From Terriglobia bacterium (GTDB taxonomy: Bacteria; Acidobacteriota; Terriglobia; Terriglobales; Acidobacteriaceae): 64,000 nucleotides of DNA. Under the pieces are notes generated by a model. It worked only from the letters and a program-made list of their open reading frames with translations, searched no databases and was not told the DNA's origin. The translations under genes were made by a program, and so were the position numbers. The stretch covers positions 221,388 to 285,387 of the forward strand of contig CAWENI010000009.1 of NCBI GenBank assembly GCA_963810505.1, given 5' to 3'. The stretch's first letter is position 1; the number at the start of each line of letters is the position of its first letter. Below, piece after piece: positions 25,433 through 51,531 of the stretch.

Positions 25433-25603
25433 CTTAACCGTTCCACTTTGCAACCTGGGCGGACCGTCCTTCGACGGTTCGCCCTTGTTTTGACTACTGA
25501 GGAGAATACGGTGTTTCGAAATCTGTTCTTTAGAAAACTGCAGTTACAGTGTGGTGTCATCCTGAGCGGAGCCGCTTTTCGGGCGGAGCGAAGGATCTCC
25601 CGC

Positions 25604-26692
25604 TTGACCAGCTTCGCGCGCAAGCCAAACCGCAGCATTACCGCCCTTTTCTGCGCATTCGCACTACTACTACCAACTCTCAGCTTTGCCCAAAATCCCC
25701 AAGAAATCCACCCTCTACAATCTAACCAGCCCGGCCAAGATGTCCACGCCATCCCCTCGTACGTCGAGGGTCTCACTGATCGTCGCTTCGACGGTTCGGA
25801 TGAGGATTGGACAAACCCTGCGCTGACCACGAGCCATTTGAAGCCGGCTCAAGCCATGGTGGGCTTTGTAGATGACCAAGCCGGATATAGCGTTTCGCTG
25901 GTCCGAGTGCAGTGGAGGCGCGGCGATCCCATAGACCTTTGGGTCATGAAGCCGACCGGAGTGAAAAAGCCGCCGGTGATCCTCTACATATACGGGTATC
26001 CGTCCGATACCGACATCTTCAAGAAACCCAAGTGGCAGGAGTTTACGACCAAGGGAGGCTTCGCCGCAGTCGGATTTGTGACCGCACTCACGGGGCATCG
26101 CTATCATGACGTTCCCTGGAAAAAATGGTTCCTCAGCGAATTGCAGCAATCCCTTGGAGAGTCAACGCATGATGTGCAGATGGTGTTGGACTATCTTGCC
26201 TCGCGTGGCGATCTTGATATGGACCGCGTGGGCGTGGTCGGGCAATTTTCGGGAGCCAGCGTCGGAATTCTCGCCTCCGCAGTCGATCCCAGGATTAAAG
26301 TGCTGGATACAATCGATCCCTGGGGGGATTGGCCCACATGGATGCAGAAGTCTGCGTTTCCGCCACCGACTGAACGGCCCGAGTATGTGAAAGCGGAGTT
26401 CCTGACCAAGGTAGCGCCGCTGGACACCGTCAACTGGCTGCCAAAGGTGCAGGCAAAAAAATTCCGCTTGCAGCAAAGGCACTACGATCAACAGACGCCA
26501 ATATGGTCCAAGCAGAAGATGCAATCGGCGGTTCCCGACGGGACGACGGTAGCGTTCTATAACAACGTGGGAGAGTTCGAAAAAGGGGTCGGCAAGCAGG
26601 GTGAGAAAAGCCTCGATTGGATCAAAGGCGAGCTGCAGTCCCTGCCGGCAGGCGGACCGGAAAATTCCGTTGCGGCCAAGAAGTCCAACTGA
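25604..26692 (+). CDS. Secreted alpha/beta-hydrolase-fold protein (dienelactone hydrolase / peptidase S9-like)
   Basis: The ORF track starts at 25448, but the in-frame TTG at 25604 gives a clean signal peptide MTSFARKPNRSITALFCAFALLLPTLSFA|Q. Nucleophile-elbow-like G-A-S-V-G occurs in VGVVGQFSGASVGILAS, and PPVILYIYGYP is typical of the fold. Confidence 0.6.
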   Translation: MTSFARKPNRSITALFCAFALLLPTLSFAQNPQEIHPLQSNQPGQDVHAIPSYVEGLTDRRFDGSDEDWTNPALTTSHLKPAQAMVGFVDDQAGYSVSLVRVQWRRGDPIDLWVMKPTGVKKPPVILYIYGYPSDTDIFKKPKWQEFTTKGGFAAVGFVTALTGHRYHDVPWKKWFLSELQQSLGESTHDVQMVLDYLASRGDLDMDRVGVVGQFSGASVGILASAVDPRIKVLDTIDPWGDWPTWMQKSAFPPPTERPEYVKAEFLTKVAPLDTVNWLPKVQAKKFRLQQRHYDQQTPIWSKQKMQSAVPDGTTVAFYNNVGEFEKGVGKQGEKSLDWIKGELQSLPAGGPENSVAAKKSN

Positions 26693-26850: not shown

Positions 26851-26958
26851 TCGTGGATTGACAGGTACGCCTGGACGGGTGCGTTCGGAACTGGGACGGC
26901 CTCGCCTCATGGCATAGACAATATGTTCTTTACCTCCATTCGCTATTACTTGCCGTAG
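26851..26958 (+). pseudogene. C-terminal remnant (~35 codons) of a paralogue of the porin-like gene 11709-13607
   Basis: ...SWIDRYAWTGAFGTGTASPHGIDNMFFTSIRYYLP* versus ...SYVSRYAWTGTNGIGFSAPHGIDNMFFTSFRYYLP* in the intact gene. There is no similarity upstream of about 26850. Confidence 0.6.
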
Positions 26959-26965
26959 CTCGAAC

Positions 26966-27006
26966 ACCCTCGCCGCGGACTTCTTACCGGGGCGAGGGTT
27001 TTTTTT
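26966..27006 (+). terminator. Rho-independent terminator downstream of the porin remnant
   Basis: ACCCTCGCC ... GGCGAGGGT stem followed by T8 (26999-27006). Confidence 0.7.
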
Positions 27007-27066
27007 CTGGCTTGTTGCCTGGAAATTCATTTCCTCAGTTTCTCACGAATACCCACCGACCAGACT

Positions 27067-28653
27067 TCAGTTCCTGCCTACCGGGGCGGCGTCACTCTGC
27101 TTTCTGACCAACACTACTGCGAGAGAGTCTTGATAGATGAGATCGAATCGAGGGTCGGAAGCTAAGAAGTTCGTTAGCGGCTTATCTTTCGGAAGCAGAA
27201 AGACCTGAGCGTCCCGCAGGTACGGGTTGTCATTCCAGGAGACACTACCGTCCTCAGTCATAATGAAAAGGCTGTCGAGTTCATCTCCATAAAGGTCGGT
27301 TCGTCCATCAATCGCGACCGGAAGATTCGGCATGTACCACGCGATGAAGTCCCCCCAATCATAAGTGTTGTACAGGGGACCAGGCTGGGGATGATCGCGG
27401 AGAAAGTTGATGGCCTGCACAGGGTACCGGCTGGCAACCGCAAGGCGAAGATTCTGGCTGTTGAATCCCAAAGCGCGGCCGTAAAGAAAAATCAATAGCG
27501 CTAGCGAAATTGCCAGATCTGCTCTTTCACCCCAAGTCTCATTATTATGATTCTCGCGCTGCGCACCCGCAAAAGCTAGCGCAAGGCAGGCGGCTGCGGG
27601 AATGCAAACGAACCAGGCATCCCGCTGTGAGCGAAAGCCGATGATGCTCGCCGCGCAGAGCAATGCTAAGAGAAACAGATCCAGCACTTTTTGGCGTCCT
27701 AAAGTGAAAAATGCGAACCCCGTCACCAACAGTTGCACGAAATCGGTGTAGTTGCGGAAGTCCAGAGCCTGAAACTCGCGGATATGGTTGTACGGAAACG
27801 TCGATCTCGCATAGTCAAAAACAACAAAATACAAATGGTAGCTATAGGGACCGATGCACGTCGCAACTGCACAGGCCACGAAGAGAATCAAAAGTGTGCG
27901 GATCGGCAGCGATGGCGCCATCAGCCAATCCTGCCTGAAATTCCTGCGCGCGCCGACTTCCTGCAAAACGCTTACCAGCACGAAGAGCCCAAGCGTGAAG
28001 ATTCCATAGATGAACTGTATGTGGGTATTCGCCCACAAAACAAATATTGGAGGGAGCCAATATAGAAGTTGCGGCCGGCCGGTTCGTCTTGCCTCGAGCA
28101 GCAGGGTCAAGGTTAGAGTGAACAACGTCATGGAAAAAAACACCGGCCTAGGAAATACACGGAACAGAAACGCGGCGCAGGTCAAAGTAGCCAAAATACA
28201 TGCTTTCCAAAATGTGCCGGAAAGCCGTCGAGTCATCCAAAAAATGCTGTACGCCACCGCGACCGTCAGCAGCAACCCGTAAACGCTGATGCCCGCCAGG
28301 TGGAACCGGGAATGAAAGAGCGACAGGAGCAGTTCGTAGAACCAGCTATAGGCAGCCCAGGGCCGGTCGGCAGTTGTTCGTGAGAGGATTCCCGTGCGGG
28401 GGACGGAGGAATGTTCGAGAATCCAGTCGCCCACCTTCAGATGTAACCAGATGTCGTTATCCACAACACTGAACTTCGGTAGGAGCGTTGGGGCAGTAAC
28501 AATAGTCAGAAAAACAGCCGTTACCATGACGTGCAGCAATCGACGCATAGCCGGGAGATGGGACGGCCCGACATCCCTCGTCCTCATCTTCTTGCCACCC
28601 ACATCACGGCTTGGAACCGGTGCCTTCGCCTTGAGCACCTTTGCTTCCGCCAT
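27067..28653 (-). CDS. Polytopic membrane protein, GT-C-like (putative glycosyltransferase), function unknown
   Basis: 528 aa with about 12 TM segments. The first external loop carries VVDNDIW (an acidic motif placed as in GT-C enzymes). The C-terminal soluble part is YNTYDWGDFIAWYMPNLPVAIDGRTDLYGDE. Function is an inference. Confidence 0.6.
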   Translation of the reverse strand: MAEAKVLKAKAPVPSRDVGGKKMRTRDVGPSHLPAMRRLLHVMVTAVFLTIVTAPTLLPKFSVVDNDIWLHLKVGDWILEHSSVPRTGILSRTTADRPWAAYSWFYELLLSLFHSRFHLAGISVYGLLLTVAVAYSIFWMTRRLSGTFWKACILATLTCAAFLFRVFPRPVFFSMTLFTLTLTLLLEARRTGRPQLLYWLPPIFVLWANTHIQFIYGIFTLGLFVLVSVLQEVGARRNFRQDWLMAPSLPIRTLLILFVACAVATCIGPYSYHLYFVVFDYARSTFPYNHIREFQALDFRNYTDFVQLLVTGFAFFTLGRQKVLDLFLLALLCAASIIGFRSQRDAWFVCIPAAACLALAFAGAQRENHNNETWGERADLAISLALLIFLYGRALGFNSQNLRLAVASRYPVQAINFLRDHPQPGPLYNTYDWGDFIAWYMPNLPVAIDGRTDLYGDELDSLFIMTEDGSVSWNDNPYLRDAQVFLLPKDKPLTNFLASDPRFDLIYQDSLAVVLVRKQSDAAPVGRN

Positions 28654-41922: not shown

Positions 41923-42900
41923 TCAGGCACACAAAGCCGCACCACCCGCAATGCCTGCATCTGCTCCGTAGTGCGCCATGCGCAATGGAATCTCTGCGGC
42001 GCCAGGATTTACGCACCACTGCGGAAGGCCATGCTCGATTTCATCGAAGAACGGTCCCAGCATGGCCGCGACGCCGCCGCCCATCACGACTACGTCGGGA
42101 TCGAGCAGGTCCACGATGTTGCTTAGCCATGCGGTTAGAAAGACGGCTGTTTCCTGAAGAATCTTGCGCGCCAGGGAATCGCCGGCCGCAAACGCTCTCC
42201 CGACCGTCTCACTGGTCACATCTTCGATCTTGCCCTGTGCAAGATCGAGCATCGCAGAGTGCCGAGACTGCTCGGCGGCGAGCCGCGCGCGGGCGCGGGC
42301 ACCGATCGCAGGGCCCGCGGCGAAAGCTTCAATGCAGCCGTGTTTGCCGCAACCGCAGACCGGGCCTCGGTAATCAATGCTCATGTGTCCGCCTTCTCCC
42401 GCCGCGCCCGTATATCCATGGTAGATTTGGCCGTCGAGTACGATGCCGGTGCCGATCCCGGTGCCGACGGTGGCATAGAAAACGTAACGGTAGCCGCGAG
42501 CAGCTCCCCAGCGGGTTTCAGCCAGCGCCGCCGCATTTGCGTCATTGTCGAGTTTAACGGGAACGCCGTAAATCTCAGCGACTTTGGCGGCGAGCGGAAA
42601 ATTCCGCCAACAGGGAAGGTTCGGTGGATTAATGACGACGCCCGTCTGAGGATCCAGCGGTCCCGGCGCGCACAAGCCAATGCCCTGGAACTTGACGTTC
42701 GCCTCGGGCATTTCCCTCGACAGTAAGTCGATCGCGGAAGTAACCGCCTTCAGTGCAGCTTCAGGTTCGCCGCGCGCGACCATAGGCTGGCGAACCTGAT
42801 TGAGAATTTTGCCGTCGCAATCCACCAGACCAGCGGCCACTTTAGTTCCACCGACATCAACCCCAATGATCGAACCATCACGCTTAGTGTGTTGCGTCAT
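41923..42900 (-). CDS. ROK-family sugar kinase (glucokinase-like)
   Basis: IIGVDVGGTKVAAGL and the ROK zinc motif CGCGKHGCIEAFAAG. The probable start is ATG 42900 (MTQHTKRDG...); the track ORF extends to 42945 into the upstream gene. Confidence 0.85.
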   Translation of the reverse strand: MTQHTKRDGSIIGVDVGGTKVAAGLVDCDGKILNQVRQPMVARGEPEAALKAVTSAIDLLSREMPEANVKFQGIGLCAPGPLDPQTGVVINPPNLPCWRNFPLAAKVAEIYGVPVKLDNDANAAALAETRWGAARGYRYVFYATVGTGIGTGIVLDGQIYHGYTGAAGEGGHMSIDYRGPVCGCGKHGCIEAFAAGPAIGARARARLAAEQSRHSAMLDLAQGKIEDVTSETVGRAFAAGDSLARKILQETAVFLTAWLSNIVDLLDPDVVVMGGGVAAMLGPFFDEIEHGLPQWCVNPGAAEIPLRMAHYGADAGIAGGAALCA

Positions 42901-45900
42901 TCGCGTTGGCAGCCTGCCCCGCTTCGTTTCTTGACTTCGAAGCAAATCGTACCTTGATGGTCTTGATCTCGTACGGCTTGGTGTGCAGCATCACCACGGC
43001 GTTCTCGACCTGCAGGTTTGACGTGGGCTTCTCCATAAGATCTGTTTCGGAGGCCGATTCCACTCCGAATGGAAGGTGAATCTTCACGTCCGCTTCCTTT
43101 CCGGCCCATTCGTAGAAGCGCAGCACAATTTCGCTGTTGTCCTCGGCCTTCTTGAGCGCGGTGACGATCACATTGTCGGGCGAGATCTGCACGAAGGAAT
43201 GCTCAGGCGGAAGTTTTCCCTCGTGTCTTGCTGCCGGTGCGGAAATCAGTTTGTAGTTCAACTCATAACCTCGGCGTACAGCCAGCGAGTCTTGCCAGTT
43301 CCCGCCATGAGGATACATGGAATAGGTGAATTCGTGATGGCCCTCGTCGGCATGCGGATCAGGCCATTCGGGCGACCTCAGCAAGGACAGCCGAAGGACG
43401 TTTCCTTTGGCGTCGTATCCGTACTTGCTGTCGTTGAGCAGACTGAATCCATGTGTGGAGTCGGAAATGTCCGCCCAGCGCAGCGCCGGAACTTCGAACT
43501 GTGCCAACTCAGCCGGCGTATTCCGCGTCGTCGGACGCTCGACTGAGCCATAAGGAATCTCAAAAGTGGCGTTGTCGTTGTGTGCGCTTAGCGGGAAGGC
43601 AACTTTCAGCAGAATATGCTTCTCATGCCATTCGGTCTGCATCTTCACGTCGACGCGCGGAACCCCGGCATACATTGTGATGTCGCGGACAAATGTCGAA
43701 TTCTGAAAATGATTTTTGACTCGGATGATCGCGCGTAACGGGCCCGCCTCGATCAGTTTGACTTCGTCAGCCGTGTCGAGGTCCCAGTGTTTTTGCTCGA
43801 AATCCGCATCGATATTCCAGGCGTCCCACTTCTCGGGTTTGTCGACGAATGTCTGCAGCAGATTGCCGCAGGTGAAACTTCTCGGGCCACCAGTGTCGGT
43901 TTCAGCAGGCGCAAGAGTTTCCGTGTTGCTGCGCTTGTCGAACAGGCTAGTCACACAACCATTCTTAGGGCCGATTTTGAGACGAATGAATTCATTCTCC
44001 AGTGAGTCTGCCGAGGCCTTAAGCAGGGAACGACCGCCTGGCACGTTGGCTGCTGCGTGCACAAAATAGGTCTGAAATCCCATCGCTGGAATATTCGCCT
44101 GCAACAGGAACCGCGCCCGATGGGTCTCTGCGTCGATGGAGAGCAACTGCGATTCCGCAGGCTTACCAGCCGAGTCCACAACGTCAATGTTGCTTGCCGG
44201 GTGAGGCAGTTGCGCTTCGAGTTCGACAACTTCGGTGCGCGCCCACGAAAGAGTATTAAAGACCACGACGGGAACGCCTTCGCCTTGGGTGTTGACGTGA
44301 TCTGTGATTTCCTTGAGCGCGCCATGCGCCACTTCGTGCGCCGCGCGGCCAACGTCTTCCAGATTGCGTTTAGCATCCAGGTAATTCACCGCAATGCCCG
44401 ATCCCGGCATGATGTCGTGAAAGTGATCGAAAAGCAGGTTCTTCCATGCCAGCTCCATCTCATCCTGCGGGTAGCGCCGGCCATAGAGCGTGGCAATCGA
44501 TGCGAACTGCTCCGCATTCAGCATGGCCTGTTCAGCGCGTCGGATCCTCCGCTTGGTTTCGGCTTGGGTGGTAAAAACACCGCGGTGATATGCGAAGTAG
44601 AGTTCGCCATCCCAGGTGGGAACCTGCATGGTGGGCAGCTTCCTTTCGAGATCGCTGAAGAAGTCTCTGGCAAAACTGAACTCAAGCTTGGGAAATACGG
44701 TAGTGGGCGCCCGGAGTTGTTCTGCGTTGTCGAGCATGACGCGAGTCGGTCCTCCGCCATGATCACCGACGCCATACAGGTGCATCATTTCGGGTTTGTC
44801 GCTGAGCTTCTTGCCATAAATCGAGGGCATCCAGATGGAAAGGTCAGTTCCCAGGCTGTCAGCGTCGATACCGCCGGCGTAGTCGTGCGGAAAGTACGTC
44901 AGCAGTCGGCTGCCGTCAGGAGCCTGCCACCAGAATAATTTGTAAGGGAATGTAGTGAACTCGTGAGCCCACAGAAGCTTCTGTGTCACGAAATAATCCA
45001 TACCTGACTTCTTGTAAATTTGCGGAAGTTGCCAGTTGTAACCGAACGAGTCGGGATTCCATCCGATCTTCACGTCCACGCCGAAATGTTTCTGGAAGTA
45101 TCGTTTCCCAACGAGGATCTGGCGGACGAGCGACTCTCCCGCGGGCATGTTGAGGTCGGGTTCGACCCACATACCACCGATGATTTCCCACCGGCCTTCC
45201 TTCACCCGTTGCTCGATCTGCTTGAACAGATCAGGATATTTCTCCTGCATCCACTCATACGTGCGGGCCGACGACATCGTGAACTTGAAATCCGGATACT
45301 CGCCCATAAGATCGAGCACACTCTGGAACGTGTTGCGCACCACTTCCACCGTTTCCGTCCAGGGCCACAGCCAGGCCATATCAATGTGTGAATTGCCCAC
45401 CGCGCGGATGGTGAAATGCTGCAGCCACGGCTTCAGTTGTTCAAGCTTGGCGTGAGCCTGGCGCAGCGATGCATCGAAGCCAGCCTGATCGCCCTTTTCG
45501 AGCGGTGAGAAATCAATCGCCGTGACCGCCGCGTCGAGTTGCTGTTCGCGCTCTGCTTTGCCTTCCTCGTACGCTGCGATGATTGGGCGCGCGGAAAGAA
45601 TCTCCATTCGTAGCCGGCCGGGGTTCGGGCGCGTAAGCGGCGCGTCGATGATAAGTTCACTGTGAAAGAACTCGGACTCTATGTCATCATTGGCGACCAC
45701 TCGGGCAGCGACCAGGAATTTCTGTCCAGGCTGTGCTTTCGCGCTTAACAGGATGGGCTGGATGTCATCCTCATTGCCGTGATAGGCAGCGACACCATTG
45801 CAGAAGACAGTTACTATGCGCGTGGAGGCGATTATGGACGAGGGTCGGCTTTGAAAGCGCAAATCCAGCTTCACTTGTGAGTTCTCAACAGCATAACCGT

Positions 45901-46222
45901 TAATCTTCTCTGGGATCTGAATCCAACGCCGAAAGACGCGAGTTCCGATCCAGCGTTCCTCACTTTCATTGTTCCCTTCCAGACCAGAGACATTTTTCAC
46001 GGCGATCACGCCCCAGTCCGAGTCATTCACGGCGGGGTCTTCTGGATGAGGTATATCTGTATGGAAGCGCCATGGACTCTCGGTTTGTGTGGTGAGCGAT
46101 TGCAGCCGGTCTAGAACAGCCTTGTAGGGATCAGAAGGCTCCGCTTTCTGAGTAGTCTGAGAAAAACTCGAGATCACGCACACTAGAATCGCAACCCCTG
46201 AAAAAACTGCAGAACGGTTCAT
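42884..46222 (-). CDS. Glycoside hydrolase family 38 alpha-mannosidase, secreted
   Basis: 1112 aa. Signal peptide, then GNSHIDMAWLWPWTETV...RWEIIGGMWVEPDLNMP, which is characteristic of the GH38 N-domain. Confidence 0.9.
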   Translation of the reverse strand: MNRSAVFSGVAILVCVISSFSQTTQKAEPSDPYKAVLDRLQSLTTQTESPWRFHTDIPHPEDPAVNDSDWGVIAVKNVSGLEGNNESEERWIGTRVFRRWIQIPEKINGYAVENSQVKLDLRFQSRPSSIIASTRIVTVFCNGVAAYHGNEDDIQPILLSAKAQPGQKFLVAARVVANDDIESEFFHSELIIDAPLTRPNPGRLRMEILSARPIIAAYEEGKAEREQQLDAAVTAIDFSPLEKGDQAGFDASLRQAHAKLEQLKPWLQHFTIRAVGNSHIDMAWLWPWTETVEVVRNTFQSVLDLMGEYPDFKFTMSSARTYEWMQEKYPDLFKQIEQRVKEGRWEIIGGMWVEPDLNMPAGESLVRQILVGKRYFQKHFGVDVKIGWNPDSFGYNWQLPQIYKKSGMDYFVTQKLLWAHEFTTFPYKLFWWQAPDGSRLLTYFPHDYAGGIDADSLGTDLSIWMPSIYGKKLSDKPEMMHLYGVGDHGGGPTRVMLDNAEQLRAPTTVFPKLEFSFARDFFSDLERKLPTMQVPTWDGELYFAYHRGVFTTQAETKRRIRRAEQAMLNAEQFASIATLYGRRYPQDEMELAWKNLLFDHFHDIMPGSGIAVNYLDAKRNLEDVGRAAHEVAHGALKEITDHVNTQGEGVPVVVFNTLSWARTEVVELEAQLPHPASNIDVVDSAGKPAESQLLSIDAETHRARFLLQANIPAMGFQTYFVHAAANVPGGRSLLKASADSLENEFIRLKIGPKNGCVTSLFDKRSNTETLAPAETDTGGPRSFTCGNLLQTFVDKPEKWDAWNIDADFEQKHWDLDTADEVKLIEAGPLRAIIRVKNHFQNSTFVRDITMYAGVPRVDVKMQTEWHEKHILLKVAFPLSAHNDNATFEIPYGSVERPTTRNTPAELAQFEVPALRWADISDSTHGFSLLNDSKYGYDAKGNVLRLSLLRSPEWPDPHADEGHHEFTYSMYPHGGNWQDSLAVRRGYELNYKLISAPAARHEGKLPPEHSFVQISPDNVIVTALKKAEDNSEIVLRFYEWAGKEADVKIHLPFGVESASETDLMEKPTSNLQVENAVVMLHTKPYEIKTIKVRFASKSRNEAGQAANANDATH

Positions 46223-46501
46223 AGCAAGTCCTCTTTTTGTCCGCAGCGGCGCCGAATAAACATAACACCTCGGCCTCGTATCGATTCCATTGGATCCAGC
46301 TAACCGGCTGATTGTATTGGAGATGATTGTAGATACAACCGGCCACGAGAGGATGTTTCACATCCTATAGCCCAAAGATTTTCAACCGTTTCTGATCGGC
46401 GGGCGCAACTGATTCTCCTGCGGAACGAAGGTTTTGAGAGCAGCAAAAAAATTCTGCTTCTTTCCATCGAAACTATTCATCGAAGTCAATACGCAATTCA
46501 G

Positions 46502-46530
46502 TTGACGGCGATTAGCGGTCAACTTAGAAT
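46502..46530 (+). promoter_or_regulatory. Candidate promoter of the cysteine leader/sulfur assimilation operon, inside an inverted repeat
   Basis: TTGACG-17 nt-TAGAAT. The same region is the inverted repeat GTTGAC-N11-GTCAAC (46501-46523). Confidence 0.45.
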
Positions 46531-46541
46531 GCAAGATCATC

Positions 46542-46634
46542 ATGTCGGTTAGCCAAAATTTCCGCGCGCTGTGTGCATGCACTTGTTGTTGTTGTGCATG
46601 TGTGTGCTCTGGCGCGGGGAGGCTGCTGACCTAA
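46542..46634 (+). CDS. Cysteine-rich leader peptide (30 aa)
   Basis: ATG TCG GTT AGC CAA AAT TTC CGC GCG CTG TGT GCA TGC ACT TGT TGT TGT TGT GCA TGT GTG TGC TCT GGC GCG GGG AGG CTG CTG ACC TAA = MSVSQNFRALCACTCCCCACVCSGAGRLLT. It has 8 Cys in 12 codons, and a terminator and the sir-cysH operon lie directly downstream. Not in the ORF track. Confidence 0.65.
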   Translation: MSVSQNFRALCACTCCCCACVCSGAGRLLT

Positions 46635-46661
46635 GAGTTTTTTCTTAATACCGGCACTCAT

Positions 46662-46700
46662 AACCCACCGCCAGAAGAACCTGGCGGTGGGTTTTTTATT
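46662..46700 (+). terminator. Rho-independent terminator between the Cys leader and sir (attenuator)
   Basis: AACCCACCGCCAG-aagaac-CTGGCGGTGGGTT followed by TTTTTTATTTCTT. The ORF-track GTG start of sir (46687) lies inside the stem. Confidence 0.8.
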
Positions 46701-46704
46701 TCTT

Positions 46705-48423
46705 ATGACAATGACAAACACAACGAAAGAAACCAAAGCTCAGCGGGTCGAACGCCTCAAGCGCGCGAAGAATCCGTGGGAAGGCCTGGAAGAGATTCGG
46801 CGCTTCGCACGCGAGGGCTTCGCTTCTATCCCGCCGGAATGGATCGGAACCTACTTCCGCTGGTGGGGCGTCTACACCCAGGGCGATGGAGCCGGCGTCA
46901 CCGGCGGTCAGGGCGGAGAAGGCAAAGCTCTGCAGCGCTTCATGGTGCGAATCCGCATCCCCAATGGCCTGCTGCGTTCCCAGCAACTGCGAACCATTGC
47001 CGATCTCACCCAACGCTACGCTCGCGGAACCGCCGACATCACCGTACGGCAGAACATTCAATTGCATTGGGTCACCATTGAGCAGCTTCCAGAAGTTCTG
47101 GACGCGCTGGTGCGAGTGGGACTCAACACCACCAGCGCCTGCGGTGATGTGACGCGCAATGTCACCGGATGCCCCGTTGCCGGTGTGGACGCGCACGAGA
47201 TTTGCGACGCCTCGCCCCTGGCGCTCGAAGCCTCGCGAATGTTGGCAGGGAACCCCGAGTTCTACAACCTCCCGCGCAAGTTCAAAATCTCGATTGCAGG
47301 ATGCCGCGCTTGGTGCCCATATCCCGAGATCAATGACATCGGCCTGACCGCGATTGCGAGGGAAGTTGGCGGCGCGCCAGAGGTTGGTTTCTCCCTGCGC
47401 GTGGCCGGCGGCCTTTCCACCGAGCCCTACCTCGGAGCGCGCCTGAATGCGTTCGTTCGATGGGACCAGGTTCTTCCCGTTATCAAAGGCATCGCCGAGT
47501 TGTTCCGCGACTCAGATGTGCTGCGCGAGCATCGCGAACGAGCGCGTATGAAATTTCTCTTTTTGCGGCATGGGTGGACGGCCGAAAGTTTTTTGGAGGA
47601 ACTGCAGCGCCGCATTGGATTCCAGCTCGATCCTGCGGTCCCGGAAGATCCGCCCTCTGATGTGTATCGGGACCATGTAGGAATCCATCCTCAGAAACAG
47701 CAAGGCTATTGCTTCGTGGGAGCGGCGGTGCTGCGCGGCCGAATCTCCGCGGAACAGATGCGCTCCGCGGCCGATCTCGCCGAGCGCTTTGCCGGTGGCG
47801 AATTGCGCACGACCAACATGCAAAACCTCCTGATCGTGAACGTGCCGCAGATCAATGCTGATTCTCTGGCGAAAGAACTGGATGCAATCGAACTCCGCGT
47901 CGACGGCTCGGCCTTTTACCGCGGCACCATCGCATGCAGCGGCACCGAATTCTGCAAGCTAGCCATCACGGAGACGAAAAGTTTTTCGCGCTGGCTCGTG
48001 GAGGAGCTCGAAGATCGTCTGCCCGGATTCGATCAGCACATGAAGCTGCACGTCACCGGATGTCCCAACAGTTGCGGGCAGCACTGGATTGCCGACATCG
48101 GGATCGAAGGTAAGAAGATAAAAGTGCAGGACCGCCTGGTGGATGCCTATTACTTCTGCCTCGGCGGTGCTCTGGGCCTGCATCAGGCAACTGCTCGTCC
48201 CGTTGGATATCGTTGCGCCGCGACTGAAGTTCCCGAAGCCATCGAGAGGTTGTTGCGCCGATATCTTGCCGAACGCGAGGTTGGTGAAAATCTGCGCCAG
48301 TTCTTTGCTCGCCACACTGATACGGAGCTGAGGGAACTTTTAGCCGGAGAGTTTGTAGACGCCGTAGCCCGGGATTTGCCGGCACAACATCTGGCGCACT
48401 CCGCAGGAGGAGACGGTGACTAG
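46705..48423 (+). CDS. sir: Assimilatory sulfite reductase (ferredoxin-type, siroheme/[4Fe-4S] hemoprotein; NirA/Sir family)
   Basis: The two-fold nitrite/sulfite reductase repeat is present. Cys cluster CSGTEFCKLAITETK ... VTGCPNSCGQH. Start is ATG 46705 or 46711. Confidence 0.88.
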   Translation: MTMTNTTKETKAQRVERLKRAKNPWEGLEEIRRFAREGFASIPPEWIGTYFRWWGVYTQGDGAGVTGGQGGEGKALQRFMVRIRIPNGLLRSQQLRTIADLTQRYARGTADITVRQNIQLHWVTIEQLPEVLDALVRVGLNTTSACGDVTRNVTGCPVAGVDAHEICDASPLALEASRMLAGNPEFYNLPRKFKISIAGCRAWCPYPEINDIGLTAIAREVGGAPEVGFSLRVAGGLSTEPYLGARLNAFVRWDQVLPVIKGIAELFRDSDVLREHRERARMKFLFLRHGWTAESFLEELQRRIGFQLDPAVPEDPPSDVYRDHVGIHPQKQQGYCFVGAAVLRGRISAEQMRSAADLAERFAGGELRTTNMQNLLIVNVPQINADSLAKELDAIELRVDGSAFYRGTIACSGTEFCKLAITETKSFSRWLVEELEDRLPGFDQHMKLHVTGCPNSCGQHWIADIGIEGKKIKVQDRLVDAYYFCLGGALGLHQATARPVGYRCAATEVPEAIERLLRRYLAEREVGENLRQFFARHTDTELRELLAGEFVDAVARDLPAQHLAHSAGGDGD

Positions 48424-49036
48424 CCTATTTCCAATGTTCTTAAAATTAACCGGTCGGCAGGGCCTGGTCGTAGGTGCAGGCAAAGTGGGTGAGCCCAAGA
48501 TCGGCGGACTCCTGGACACAGGAGCACGCATCCGCGTGGTCGCTCGCGAGGCGACCGAAGTCGTTCACGAATGGGCGCGTGCAGGAAAGATTGATTTGGA
48601 GTTGCGAGCCTTCGCGCCACATGACTTGGACGGCGCATTTCTTGCGGTCATTGCCACCTCCTCGCGCAGCCTGAACGAATTCGTTTACCGCGAAGCTCAG
48701 CAACGCGCAGTGCTCTGCAACGTGGTCGATGTTCCGGAGTATTGCGATTTCTTCTACCCGGCTCTGGTAAGACGCGGCGATCTGCAGATTGCAATCTCAA
48801 CGTCGGGGCAGAGTCCCTCGCTTGCGCAAAGACTTCGACAGCAACTGGAACAGCAGTTTGGACCCGGGTACGCAGCGTGGGTCGCGGAGCTCGGCGAGAC
48901 CAGAAGACTCATTGTGGCCAGCGATCTCGACCCAGAGCGTAAGCGAGAGTTGCTTCACTCCCTGGCCAGCAGGGAGGCGTTTGAGGCTGCCCTCGCGAAC
49001 GTCCCGCTATTGACCACGCAAGGAGAAGGAGCATGA
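48416..49036 (+). CDS. Precorrin-2 dehydrogenase / sirohydrochlorin ferrochelatase (SirC / CysG N-domain-like)
   Basis: FPMFLKLTGRQGLVVGAGKVGEPK Rossmann start and FYPALVRRGDLQIAISTSGQSP. 8-nt overlap with sir. Confidence 0.8.
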   Translation: MTSLFPMFLKLTGRQGLVVGAGKVGEPKIGGLLDTGARIRVVAREATEVVHEWARAGKIDLELRAFAPHDLDGAFLAVIATSSRSLNEFVYREAQQRAVLCNVVDVPEYCDFFYPALVRRGDLQIAISTSGQSPSLAQRLRQQLEQQFGPGYAAWVAELGETRRLIVASDLDPERKRELLHSLASREAFEAALANVPLLTTQGEGA

Positions 49037-49875
49037 AAGGCAAAGTTTATCTGGTAGGCGCAGGACCGGGCGACCCAGAGTTGCTCACTCTGAAGGCGCT
49101 TCGCCTGCTGCGAACGGCGCAAGCTGTATTGCACGACGATCTCGTCGCCCCAGAGATACTGCGGCTTATTCCGTCAACCGCGCAGGTTTACAACGTCGGC
49201 AAACGCTGCGGGAAGAAGAGTGTTCGTCAGGAGGAAATTAATTTCCTGATGGTTGAGCTGGCTGCTTCAGGACTGCAGGTGGTTCGGTTGAAAGGCGGCG
49301 ATCCCCTGATTTTCGGCCGCGCAGGCGAGGAGATCGAATCCCTGAGAAGAGCCAAGATTCCCTACGAGATCGTTCCCGGCGTGACCTCAGCCCTGGGCGC
49401 AGCAGCAGCGGCCGAGATTCCACTGACGCATCGGAAAGCAGCATCCGCGCTGGTCTTCATAACCGCGCAACGCGCCTCTGCAAATGACGCCGTGGATTGG
49501 AGCAAGTTTGTCAGCAGCGGAGCAACCGTGGTCATTTACATGCCGGGACAGAACTACGCCGATGTGGCCACGAAGCTGATGGCAGCCGGACTCCCCCGGG
49601 AAACGCCTTGCGCGGCAATTTCGCGCGCCACAACCAGGCACCAGCAAGTGCATCGCACAACGGTTCTGAATCTGCATCGTGTTCCGCAACTCGCGGCCCC
49701 TACGCTGCTGGTGGTGGGTGAGGTAGTTCGATTCTCCGATCCCACGGCCATTGCGGAAAACTTTGTGGCGCCCCACCTGGAGGCGGGCGTGGATGCTCTG
49801 CTTCCGGTCGCATTCTTCAAAGATTTCCCCTCTCCGGCACAAGCCTTCGAAGGGGATGAGGAGCCAATCGCGTGA
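49033..49875 (+). CDS. cobA: Uroporphyrinogen-III C-methyltransferase (SUMT)
   Basis: KVYLVGAGPGDPELLTLKALRLL, VVRLKGGDPLIFGR, PYEIVPGVTSA. Confidence 0.9.
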   Translation: MKGKVYLVGAGPGDPELLTLKALRLLRTAQAVLHDDLVAPEILRLIPSTAQVYNVGKRCGKKSVRQEEINFLMVELAASGLQVVRLKGGDPLIFGRAGEEIESLRRAKIPYEIVPGVTSALGAAAAAEIPLTHRKAASALVFITAQRASANDAVDWSKFVSSGATVVIYMPGQNYADVATKLMAAGLPRETPCAAISRATTRHQQVHRTTVLNLHRVPQLAAPTLLVVGEVVRFSDPTAIAENFVAPHLEAGVDALLPVAFFKDFPSPAQAFEGDEEPIA

Positions 49876-50609
49876 AAGACAAAATCGCTGAATTGCAGCG
49901 CTTGGCAGAGAGTTGGACTCCCCAGCACGTTCTCGCCTGGGCATTTGAAAACTTCGGTAATGGCGTCGCTATTTCCTCCGCTTTTGGCGCTGAGGGCATG
50001 GTCCTCATTGACATGGCCTCGCGGGTGCACAAGGATTTCCGGCTCTTCACGATTGACACAGAGTTCTTATTCCCCGAAACCTACAGCCTGATGGATAGGA
50101 TCGAGCAGAGATACGGCGTCACGATCGAGAAAGTATATTCGCTACTCTCGCAGGAAGAGCAAGAGCGCCATCACGGTGCGGCATTGTGGAGCCAAGATCC
50201 AGATCGCTGCTGCAACCTGGGAAAGGTCGAGCCGCTGCGGCGCAAATTAGGCGAGCTCAATGCCTGGATCACGAGTATTCGGCGCGACCAGACCTCGGCC
50301 CGCGCGGGTGCCCGCAAAATCGAGTGGGATACGAAATTCGGACTCGTCAAGGTGAATCCGATCGTCGACTGGACTTCAAAGCAGGTGTGGCGCTACATCC
50401 ATCAGCACGATGTGCCGTACAACGCGCTCCACGATCAGAACTATCCCAGCATCGGCTGCACGCATTGCACCGCGTCTGTGAGACCAGGCGAAGATCCGCG
50501 GGCGGGCCGCTGGCCGGGCTTTGCCAAGACGGAGTGCGGCCTGCATGTGATTGAGCCGGCGCCACCCAATTTAACGGGAGCAGCTAACGCCGCCAAGGCC
50601 GGAGACTAA
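49872..50609 (+). CDS. cysH: Adenylyl-/phosphoadenylyl-sulfate reductase (CysH), Fe-S (APS-reductase) type
   Basis: The PAPS_reduct fold is present. Cys pair DPDRCCNLGKVEPL and CTHC are the cluster ligands of APS reductases, together with the C-terminal KTECGLH. Confidence 0.9.
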   Translation: MKDKIAELQRLAESWTPQHVLAWAFENFGNGVAISSAFGAEGMVLIDMASRVHKDFRLFTIDTEFLFPETYSLMDRIEQRYGVTIEKVYSLLSQEEQERHHGAALWSQDPDRCCNLGKVEPLRRKLGELNAWITSIRRDQTSARAGARKIEWDTKFGLVKVNPIVDWTSKQVWRYIHQHDVPYNALHDQNYPSIGCTHCTASVRPGEDPRAGRWPGFAKTECGLHVIEPAPPNLTGAANAAKAGD

Positions 50610-50628: not shown

Positions 50629-51531
50629 TCAGGCGTCTGTCTTCTTCGGATAGGTTGCTAGCTGCCGCAGCAGGCTGATAAATGCGGTTGTCGCTACGGA
50701 ATGAGTCCGGTCGCGGCGGTAGGCCAGGCCCAGTTCGCGAAACAGTTCCGCATCCTCAATATCAATCAGCTTGACCCTGCCGGCCTCAACCTCGTCGTGA
50801 GCGAACGACGCGCTGATCAGCGAAACTCCCAGATCGGCCGCCACAAAGCTCTTGATCATGCCAATGCTCGGCAATTCCATGCGCACTTGCAGTTCCGCCG
50901 AATGCGGCCGAAACAGCTTGTCCAGCAGCCGCCGCGTATGGCCTGTCTTCGGAAATAACAACGGGTGCTTGACAATTTCACCGATGGAAACGACTTTGTG
51001 CTTGGCCAAGGGATTCTTGGGACTCACCATCAGCATCAACTTGTCGCGGAAGATGGGATGGACTTTCAGGCTCGGAGACTGGACCGGCAAGGTGAGAACG
51101 CCGACCTCGACCGACCCGTTCTCCAGCTTTTCGATGATCTTATAAGTGAAATTACGATAGATGCTGATCTGTACTGGCGGATAGCGGCGGCAATACTCGG
51201 CAAACACCTCTGGAAGCACATACAGGCACGTCGCCTCGTTTGCGCCCACGCGTAATGTGCCACGCGGCGTCCCACTGTGGTCGGCTACCGCCATCAACGA
51301 TTCGTCGCGCAGATTCTTCATGCGCTCGGCATATTCGTAGAACACCTGCCCGGCGGGAGTCAGTTTTACGGTCTTGCCCGAGCGGTCGAGCAGGCGATCG
51401 CCGTACTCCTGCTCTAATTGGCGAATCTGCGCGCTGACCGCCGATTGCGAGCGAAACACCTTCTCCCCTGCCCGCGAGAAGCTGCCTTGCCTGGCGACTT
51501 CCAGGAATGTGACGAGCTGATCGAAGTCCAT
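50629..51531 (-). CDS. LysR-family transcriptional regulator, divergent from gltBD (GltC-like arrangement)
   Basis: MDFDQLVTFLEVARQGSFSRAGEKVFRSQSAVSAQIRQLE HTH. 300 aa. Confidence 0.85.
   Translation of the reverse strand: MDFDQLVTFLEVARQGSFSRAGEKVFRSQSAVSAQIRQLEQEYGDRLLDRSGKTVKLTPAGQVFYEYAERMKNLRDESLMAVADHSGTPRGTLRVGANEATCLYVLPEVFAEYCRRYPPVQISIYRNFTYKIIEKLENGSVEVGVLTLPVQSPSLKVHPIFRDKLMLMVSPKNPLAKHKVVSIGEIVKHPLLFPKTGHTRRLLDKLFRPHSAELQVRMELPSIGMIKSFVAADLGVSLISASFAHDEVEAGRVKLIDIEDAELFRELGLAYRRDRTHSVATTAFISLLRQLATYPKKTDA

Follow-up and report, generated by a model that had tools for sequence, protein, structure and literature searches.

A probable cysteine-sensing transcription attenuator with a leaderless-type start upstream of the sulfite reductase operon in Terriglobia

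A cysteine-rich leader precedes the sir operon

In a 64,000-nucleotide (nt) stretch of DNA from a Terriglobia bacterium (contig CAWENI010000009.1; hereafter the window), an operon with the gene order sir-sirC-cobA-cysH (46705-50609, plus strand) is preceded by a short cysteine-rich open reading frame (ORF) and an intrinsic terminator, and the leader made up of these elements is the subject of this study. Based on Pfam and NCBIfam comparisons, the operon encodes a NirA/Sir-type sulfite reductase of the NIR_SIR family (sir, 46705-48423), a protein with the N-terminal domain of siroheme synthase (sirC, 48416-49036), a uroporphyrinogen-III C-methyltransferase (cobA, 49033-49875) and a cysH-type (P)APS reductase (49872-50609), all on the plus strand and with frames that overlap or abut. 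The spacer between sir and a divergent GH38 gene (42884-46222, minus strand) comprises 482 nt (46223-46704). It contains a sigma-70-type promoter on the plus strand (46502-46530), in which the -35 box TTGACG (46502-46507) and the -10 box TAGAAT (46525-46530) are 17 nt apart. This is the sole promoter-like site within 46200-46760, a region for which shuffled sequences predict 0.6. An inverted repeat, GTTGAC (46501-46506) and GTCAAC (46518-46523) with 11 nt between them, lies over the -35 box and the promoter spacer.

The leader ORF opens at an ATG 11 nt after the -10 box and consists of 30 codons and a TAA stop (46542-46634, plus strand, stop codon at 46632-46634), with the translation MSVSQNFRALCACTCCCCACVCSGAGRLLT. 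It has no Shine-Dalgarno sequence, and its 5' untranslated region (UTR) is expected to measure only about 3-5 nt, a leaderless-like arrangement. Codons 11-22 (46572-46607, plus strand) form the putative regulatory tract, in which eight of the 12 codons specify cysteine (six TGT and two TGC). Four consecutive TGT codons at 46584-46595 constitute the core of the tract, TGTTGTTG, which is invariant in the alignment of related leaders. An intrinsic terminator (46662-46704, plus strand) begins 27 nt past the leader stop and is composed of a perfect 13-bp stem (46662-46674/46681-46693) with nine G-C pairs, a 6-nt loop (46675-46680), a run of six T residues and a T-rich tail that extends to 46704. 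The sir ATG is located 7 nt past the T run. An earlier note on this DNA had pointed out the promoter with its inverted repeat, the 482-nt spacer, the 30-codon ORF with eight cysteines in 12 codons and the perfect hairpin (46662-46693) followed by six T residues ahead of the sir ATG, and all of these were recovered at their coordinates.

Within the window, 46542-46634 is the sole stretch with at least six cysteines in 12 codons, and no further cysteine-dense short ORFs (sORFs) were found in the window or in the 10-kb flanks of 80 related loci. A protein database search with a 40-residue query covering the leader peptide gave no candidate; evidently, the leader sORFs are not called as genes in databases. 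TGT makes up 58% of the cysteine codons in 81 leaders, compared with 31% in the long ORFs of the window, and the stretch TGT TGT TGT is nearly invariant across the aligned leaders. The bias could reflect a slower, wobble-read codon or the pairing needs of a UGU/GCA-rich inner helix.

Mutually exclusive RNA structures of the leader

The RNA structures were assessed by computed folds (minimum free energy, MFE, and centroid) and by pairing counts and covariation over the aligned leaders. The leader RNA folds with -74.8 kcal/mol (z = -6.5 against shuffled controls), and three mutually exclusive helices were found, namely a 1:2 helix between the two halves of the ORF, a 2:3 antiterminator and the 3:4 terminator. 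Region 1 (46547-46571) is the 5' strand of the 1:2 anti-antiterminator in both the MFE and the centroid folds. Region 2 (46608-46628, UCUGGCGCGGGGAGGCUGCUG) is the shared strand in the folds, with either region 1 or region 3 as its partner. Region 3 (46652-46675) serves as the 3' strand of the antiterminator and shares positions with the terminator 5' arm (46662-46674). A tip hairpin, UAAGAG-UUUU-UUCUUA (46632-46647), holds the leader stop codon and forms the apex of the antiterminator; all four elements lie on the plus strand.

In the 1:2 hairpin the whole ORF is folded on itself with -43.9 kcal/mol, by pairing of 46547-46553 with 46625-46631, 46560-46563 with 46618-46621 and 46565-46571 with 46610-46616, and its inner helix (46575-46582/46600-46607) sits inside the cysteine run. 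Over 81 sequences, pairing in the core helix amounts to 73%, and 10 of its pairs are altered on both sides. In one example, a change from C-G to U-A couples CUU to UUU (leucine to phenylalanine) in the N-terminal part of the peptide to AGG to AAA (arginine to lysine) in the C-terminal part. The earlier note had proposed an anti-antiterminator formed by CCGCGC and GCGCGG; the 1:2 hairpin does exist, but the proposed register is shifted relative to the MFE pairing.

The RNA that a stalled ribosome would leave exposed (46600-46676) folds into a 23-bp composite antiterminator helix of -27.5 kcal/mol, comparable to the -26.7 kcal/mol of the terminator. In this helix, 46608-46614 pair with CGCCAGA (46669-46675), 46617-46619 with CCC (46664-46666), 46621-46622 with UC (46658-46659) and 46624-46628 with CGGCA (46652-46656). 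The conservation of the motif CGGCAC between the leader stop and the terminator is thus explained by its being part of the 2:3 helix. Pairing of the region after the cysteine codons with the terminator 5' arm had been anticipated in the earlier note as a helix of 6 + 3 bp; the pairing is there, but in the form of the 23-bp helix over 46608-46675. By pairing with the loop-proximal CGCCAG of the terminator 5' arm, the antiterminator ties up the nucleation site of the terminator. Of 81 relatives, 79 have the closing helix of the antiterminator in their MFE structure; the median energy is -24.3 kcal/mol, compared with -26.7 kcal/mol for the terminators. Both alternative structures, which the earlier note had suggested comparing by folding, are similar in energy and conserved.

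The two main antiterminator helices are 93-94% paired in the alignment, whereas sliding the partner by 1-3 columns reduced this value to 37-55%. One antiterminator pair occurs as U-A in 32, as U-G in 31 and as C-G in 14 leaders; since the C-G state changes a leucine codon to proline, the constraint is on the RNA and not on the peptide. The result was replicated on metagenome sequences, which were aligned using a model without the antiterminator helix (91.6% paired, against 37-50% when slid). The terminator is 98.2% paired in 81 genomes, with compensatory changes in five pairs, and 97.5% paired in the metagenome set; its pattern reads CCCAYCGCCAG-N(3-12)-CTGGCGGTGGG. The tip hairpin is the least conserved helix, with 67% pairing and three covarying pairs. 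In the natural variant L073, regions 2, 3 and 4 are altered in concert to CUGAC, GUCAG and CUGAC. At equilibrium, the full leader folds as the 1:2 hairpin plus the terminator. A cmscan against Rfam over 46000-47000, with E values up to 10, gave seven weak matches (12-21 bits, with gathering cut-offs of 37-112), none of them to a leader or riboswitch, and all of them lie on the terminator hairpin or inside sir.

Conservation of the leader upstream of sir

Relatives were found by a scan with the Sir protein, and 80 loci with a Sir identity of 74-85% were fetched, one genome per species. By their record titles, nearly all belong to Acidobacteriota (Terriglobales, Acidobacteriaceae and metagenome-assembled genomes of 'Candidatus Sulfotelmatobacter'), and three of the 80 carry the labels Eisenbacteria, Verrucomicrobiia and Solibacter. 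A protein database search with Sir gave relatives of at least 83% identity only; the family was traced to Sir proteins of about 71-74% identity. A scan upstream of sir orthologues had also been suggested in the earlier note, and it yielded a cysteine ORF and a terminator in 80 out of 80 relatives, with covariation between the paired strands. The cysteine ORF comprises 27-31 codons (51 of the 80 leaders counted have exactly 30) with 4-10 cysteines, is located 58-172 nt upstream of sir and is conserved in its start, stop and frame. The consensus of the leader peptide is MSxxxNLRAxCCCTCCCCACVCxGAGRLLT. The sir start lies between about 0 and more than 110 nt past the hairpin. The gene order sir-sirC-cobA-cysH is found in 76 of the 80 loci, and the remaining four show part of it, whereas the flanking genes vary (GH38 in 21 and LysR in 13 of 80). 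Thus, the element travels with the operon.

The promoter is conserved along with the ORF. The sequence TTGAC of the -35 box is invariant or nearly so, and a -10 box of the form TAGAAT, TAGTAT or TAGCAT follows after 17-18 nt in 80 of 81 aligned leaders. In 76 of 81 leaders, 6-11 nt separate the -10 box from the ATG (6-8 nt in 14, 9-10 nt in 60 and 11 nt in two), so there is no room for a Shine-Dalgarno sequence. Judged from this spacing, the predicted leader mRNA would be leaderless or would have a UTR of only a few nt.

The length of the cysteine run varies in units of three and solely on its 5' side. Region 2 begins 13 nt past the CCCC core, and in 78 of 80 leaders its CTGG starts 23 nt ahead of the stop codon. 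The variant L011 (3864-3981) carries a +1 insertion after the cysteine run; its nucleotides are kept, but the C-terminal peptide is wholly different (RIAVRWRGEVADLK). A metagenome scan with a pattern for the ORF only gave 120 matches, of which 95 have sir within 400 nt; the others consist of 11 leaders cut by contig ends, about 13 chance matches and one leader before cysD. This conservation in both genomes and metagenomes rules out a free-running microsatellite or a chance ORF.

Homologous leaders at other operons

A covariance model, R1, was built only from sir leaders. A leader upstream of cysD-cysN was first found in a single metagenome match, L131, and six further distinct upstream regions were fetched from CysD relatives sampled at 82-92% identity, some of them labelled 'Candidatus Acidoferrum'. 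A homologous cysteine leader of 30-33 codons with CC-x-CC runs precedes cysD-cysN in all seven distinct loci. Each of the seven opens with ATG or GTG 7-11 nt after a -10-like box, lacks a Shine-Dalgarno sequence and contains UUCUGGCG as region 2, CGCCAGAA as region 1 and a terminator as in the sir leader. R1 matches these leaders end to end, with 54-62 bits and E values of about 1e-12. They are located at about 2090-2290 in L131 (reverse-complement coordinates), 1280-1470 in L201 and L202, 1290-1460 in L203/L204, 1280-1450 in L205/L206, 40-205 in L207 and 1330-1510 in L208. Together, the sir and cysDN leaders suggest a regulon for the whole sulfate-assimilation pathway that would be controlled by Cys-tRNA.

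A third leader type was matched by R1 (43-53 bits) upstream of an aspartate kinase gene (TIGR00657, 336 bits), on the strand opposite to the sir leader, about 5.5 kb away from it and convergent with it. Its ORF of 31 codons, MxxxIQKATRITSTGTGMSTRITCLLEDGxG, contains about six threonine codons, two to three isoleucine codons and one cysteine codon. Region 2 and the terminator (AACCCACCGCCAGAAGCGATCTGGCGGTGGGTTTTT) are shared with the sir leader, whereas the apparent 5' UTR of the aspartate kinase leaders inspected, about 16-30 nt, differs from that of the cysteine leaders. These leaders were located at 7595-7694 in L185, 9703-9802 in L148 and 6213-6336 in L105 (minus strand in all three), at 3346-3466 in L129, 2015-2135 in L085, 7553-7650 in L095, 5533-5655 in L118 and 1674-1794 in L102, and at the far ends of L005, L010, L023-L027, L032-L034, L038, L040 and others. 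The aspartate kinase leaders of L010 and L105 are frameshifted and end in VSSGGWYRMK and CPSGGRDRMK, respectively, while the nucleotides of region 2 are kept. Taken with the sir variant L011, this places the conservation behind the peptide motifs GAGRLLT and LLEDGxG at the RNA level.

In 1.66 Mb of fetched sequence, the shared terminator occurs 177 times behind a cysteine-rich ORF and 28 times behind an ORF that is not cysteine-rich, and 27 of these 28 precede aspartate kinase. The sensor codons thus follow the pathway while the switch stays constant, which is the strongest argument that the ribosome, rather than another factor, reads the signal. The same finding establishes the homology of these attenuators.

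According to the scans for cysteine density and with R1, the window itself holds the sir copy of the leader only. A weak R1 match at 26957-27006 (E = 0.07) was rejected. At 26925-27008, a very short ORF (MFFTSIRYYLP) precedes a strong terminator (CCCTCGCC...GGCGAGGG and nine T residues), both of them between the convergent genes 25448-26692 (plus strand) and 27067-28653 (minus strand), and there is no plus-strand gene downstream; this is most likely an ordinary terminator.

Other features of the locus

The protein database entry for the Sir of the window (P0001) has 578 residues, implying a GTG start at 46687. This codon falls within the terminator 3' arm, and the additional segment corresponds to 46687-46704. 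The start is probably mis-annotated in the database, as the 572-residue protein from the ATG at 46705 aligns better with its relatives. A LysR-family gene (50629-51531, minus strand) that is convergent with cysH was considered as a CysB-like co-regulator and rejected, because no more than 13 of 80 relatives carry it and a family other than CysB matches it best. Its highest NCBIfam similarity is to the selenium-metabolism-associated LysR family (199 bits, below the cut-off of 250), with CysB/Cbl far weaker, and the gene is probably unrelated to the leader.

The inverted repeat across the -35 box and promoter spacer was likewise rejected as a feature of the whole family, being significant in about one-third of the leaders (z < -1.5 in about 31%; mean z = -0.87). 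The repeat was noted at the aligned positions in L003, L010, L013, L019, L025, L037, L064 and others, and in other relatives a different repeat, CGGGC...GCCCG, fills the promoter spacer. Given its limited occurrence, the inverted repeat is a feature of a sub-clade. About 10 nt 5' of the -35 box, a motif TAC-G-nAAG (TTACGTAA in some leaders) is partly conserved and might be a candidate binding site for a factor.

Discussion

The sir leader is probably a classical ribosome-mediated transcription attenuator that senses charged tRNA-Cys, a reading drawn from comparative sequence analysis that we hold with considerable confidence. An attenuator of the trp/his type working from a near-leaderless ATG had been put forward in the earlier note, and the proposal gains support from the conservation in 80 of 80 relatives, the covarying helices and the homologues with pathway-matched codons. 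Starting from the observed anatomy, conservation, covariation and match of codon type to pathway, the model predicts a transcription start, leaderless initiation, a ribosome geometry and an in vivo response as follows. Transcription would begin a few nt before the ATG at 46542, and the 30-codon leader would be translated without a Shine-Dalgarno sequence. With plentiful Cys-tRNA, the ribosome would pass the eight cysteine codons and reach the stop at 46632, where it would cover about 46620-46646, including the inner antiterminator helix and the tip hairpin, and block 2:3 pairing. After its release, the ORF halves would re-pair as 1:2, region 3 would be free for region 4, the 13-bp terminator would form and RNA polymerase would halt before sir. 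With scarce Cys-tRNA, the ribosome would stall on the early or core cysteine codons (46572-46595). With its A site between codon 11 and about codon 18, it would cover or separate region 1, and its front edge would reach no further than about 46606, just short of region 2, which starts at 46608. Region 2 would then pair with region 3 once this is transcribed and sequester the loop-proximal half of the terminator 5' arm, allowing the polymerase to read into sir-sirC-cobA-cysH. Without translation, the 1:2 and 3:4 helices would form and termination would occur by default. A pause site that synchronizes polymerase and ribosome may be formed by the 1:2 hairpin together with the U-rich stretch (46638-46647) behind it. 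A ribosome covers about 12-15 nt on either side of its decoding centre (A/P sites), and the codon geometry, with 13 nt from the core to region 2 and 23 nt from CTGG to the stop, is consistent with this footprint.

Several points weigh against this interpretation. The last two cysteine codons (46599-46601 and 46605-46607) lie so near region 2 that a ribosome stalling on them would cover it and promote termination. As the equilibrium fold consists of 1:2 and the terminator, the model has to rely on kinetics. Most leaders have their ATG 9-11 nt past the -10 box, which would give a 5' UTR of 2-5 nt rather than an mRNA that starts with AUG. Because of the strong sequence conservation of the terminator and region 2, most of their pairs are invariant, and the covariation rests on few events; such conservation across three operon types could also point to a bound factor. 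The support for every member of the family is sequence comparison and folding, most fetched relatives with organism titles are metagenome-assembled genomes, and the searches brought up no cultured host.

A bound factor would be an RNA-binding protein, a small molecule or a tRNA that acts in trans on the near-invariant CCCACCGCCAG/CUGGCGGUGGG module, leaving the ORF a secondary or modulatory role. In its favour, the terminator and region 2 are almost invariant in the sir, cysDN and aspartate kinase leaders despite Sir identities of 74%, and the sequence conservation exceeds the needs of a plain hairpin. However, drift in regions 2 and 3 is already slowed by the fact that every nucleotide there can pair with two alternative partners, and the difference between operon types lies in the codon content, cysteine or threonine/isoleucine, that matches the pathway. 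The frame, start and stop of the leader are conserved as well, and neither a riboswitch nor a T-box was matched in Rfam, so that such a factor is considered unlikely. It is also conceivable, if quite improbable, that the sORF senses Cys-tRNA with a different output, such as translation through access to the sir start, Rho-dependent termination or mRNA stability. The mycobacterial precedent acts on translation, and with the sir ATG of the window so close to the T run the hairpin could occlude ribosome loading. Yet the hairpin and T-tract make up a canonical, conserved intrinsic terminator, no Shine-Dalgarno sequence is sequestered, and the variable distance between hairpin and sir fits poorly with occlusion of the start site as a conserved mechanism.

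The conserved length of the ORF and the recurring motif CCCCxCxC...GAGRLLT would suit a functional cysteine-rich micropeptide, either a metal- or redox-binding peptide or the precursor of a ribosomally synthesized and post-translationally modified peptide, that merely lies beside an ordinary terminator. This is very improbable. The C-terminal conservation is at the RNA level, with leucine-to-proline changes compensated by pairing, the frameshift variants L011, L010 and L105 keep the nucleotides and not the peptide, and N-terminal residues covary with C-terminal ones as base pairs. In addition, modification enzymes are absent from the neighbourhood, and an unregulated terminator between a promoter-proximal peptide gene and the operon would be pointless. 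A chance TGT- or TG-rich microsatellite that happens to be open beside an unrelated terminator can practically be dismissed, being refuted by the comparative data. Although relatives vary by one or two units in the (TGT)n core, the ORF with its start, stop and frame and the flanking pairing partners are kept in all 80 genomes and in about 106 metagenome contigs, and the length from the core to region 2 is constant apart from the one +1 variant. The earlier note had named microsatellite-like variation of the TG-rich tract as a finding that would speak against attenuation; instead, the frame is kept, the CTGG-to-stop distance holds at 23 nt in 78 of 80 leaders, and the window has no second stretch of this cysteine density.

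Attenuation in response to Cys-tRNA would place the sir leader beside the classical attenuators of trp, his, leu, thr, ilvGMEDA, ilvBN and pheA, with which it shares a short ORF enriched in codons for the end product and an intrinsic terminator before the first structural gene. The four regions with exclusive 1:2, 2:3 and 3:4 helices and, by the model, termination by default in the untranslated state are also common to both. The threonine and isoleucine codons of the aspartate kinase leader parallel the thr leader of Escherichia coli. No classical attenuator for cysteine is known in enterobacteria, where the cysteine regulon is under CysB control. In contrast to the classical systems, the sir leader would sense cysteine, has no Shine-Dalgarno sequence and an ATG 6-11 nt after the -10 box, and carries its regulatory codons in the loop between regions 1 and 2 instead of within region 1. 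It is also found in Acidobacteriota and matches none of the Rfam leader families (Trp, His, Leu, Thr and Phe). S-box (S-adenosylmethionine, SAM) riboswitches and T-box leaders of Firmicutes likewise control premature termination through terminator and antiterminator helices, but their sensor is a metabolite- or tRNA-binding RNA domain and not a translating ribosome, and the Rfam scan of 46000-47000 contained no such domain.

Cysteine leaders as such have precedents in mycobacteria, Actinobacteria and Rhodobacterales (10.1101/834739, PMC1262725, PMC8632094), so the statement in the earlier note that this is not a characterised class holds for the family but not for the principle. In Mycobacterium smegmatis, polycysteine leaderless sORFs were shown experimentally to relieve the repression of cysteine-related operons by ribosome stalling (Canestrari et al., bioRxiv 10.1101/834739, published in Mol Microbiol 2020). 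There, Ms5788A unmasks the Shine-Dalgarno sequence of the next gene, a translational attenuation that the authors contrasted with terminator-based models (10.1101/834739). The acidobacterial leaders resemble this 'Cys ribulon' in having a putatively leaderless or near-leaderless first-cistron sORF with consecutive cysteine codons at sulfur operons, here CCCC before the sir operon and CC-x-CC before cysD-cysN, and in occupying several loci per lineage (sir-cysH and cysDN). The predicted output differs, as it consists of an intrinsic terminator and an antiterminator, with no Shine-Dalgarno sequence to sequester. Moreover, the mycobacterial loci arose independently of one another, whereas the acidobacterial leaders are mutually homologous, and the two phyla are unrelated. 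The sensor of the acidobacterial element would work like that of the mycobacterial attenuators, coupled to a switch of the classical kind, and the element itself is outside that family.

Cysteine leader peptides were also predicted for cys and cbs operons of Actinobacteria; they lack a conserved terminator, and a dependence on Rho was proposed (Seliverstov et al. 2005, PMC1262725). Those leaders are likewise short ORFs with cysteine runs near the stop that were found by comparative genomics, whereas the acidobacterial sir leader has all components of an attenuator. An attenuator with a cysteine uORF, a terminator stem and a U run, uORFC-8-2, was predicted before cysS in Rhodobacterales (2021, PMC8632094). 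It has two tandem cysteine codons compared with 4-10 here, controls a tRNA synthetase gene and not sulfate assimilation, and belongs to alpha-proteobacteria; neither a leaderless start nor homology to the acidobacterial element was reported for it. Almost none of the attenuators predicted in Acidobacteria have assigned functions (Naville and Gautheret 2010, PMC2965389). For about 13% of acidobacterial genes, a leaderless start has been predicted. For this comparison, full-text literature searches returned nothing on Acidobacteria. With no Rfam match, a different phylum and a predicted output that is not translational, the element is outside every described family. The principle is known, but the family, the phylum and the combination of features appear undescribed. 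By sequence comparison, what appears to be new is the joining of cysteine specificity with an intrinsic terminator and a start of the leaderless type, within Acidobacteriota and within a homologous multi-operon family that includes a threonine/isoleucine branch.

Tentatively, and at somewhat less than an even chance, the leaders may be read as a Terriglobia family of homologous, duplicating attenuators. In such a family, one platform, region 2 with the CCCACCGCCAG/CUGGCGGUGGG terminator, would be re-targeted by its sensor codons, cysteine for sir-cysH and cysDN and threonine/isoleucine for aspartate kinase, with a cysteine branch that is loaded in leaderless fashion. Leader-peptide attenuators are normally thought to arise independently, and homologous attenuators of different amino-acid specificity that share one terminator module are unusual. 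If true, the family would parallel the T-box family, with the ribosome as its sensor, and more specificities may remain in these genomes. It would also mean that classical terminator/antiterminator attenuation can be run from a leaderless mRNA, for which no case was found in the literature searched. The mechanism itself would be unsurprising to specialists; the modular homologous family and the combination of a leaderless start with a terminator would surprise. Cysteine sensing by ribosome stalling, known from Actinobacteria, would gain a second phylum and, beside the translational output, a transcriptional one, and R1 provides a covariance model for annotating the unannotated 30-codon ORFs in soil and peat metagenomes. 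For the Acidobacteriota, which are abundant soil bacteria, attenuation at the sir leader would, if true, give a concrete and testable mechanism for the control of sulfate assimilation.

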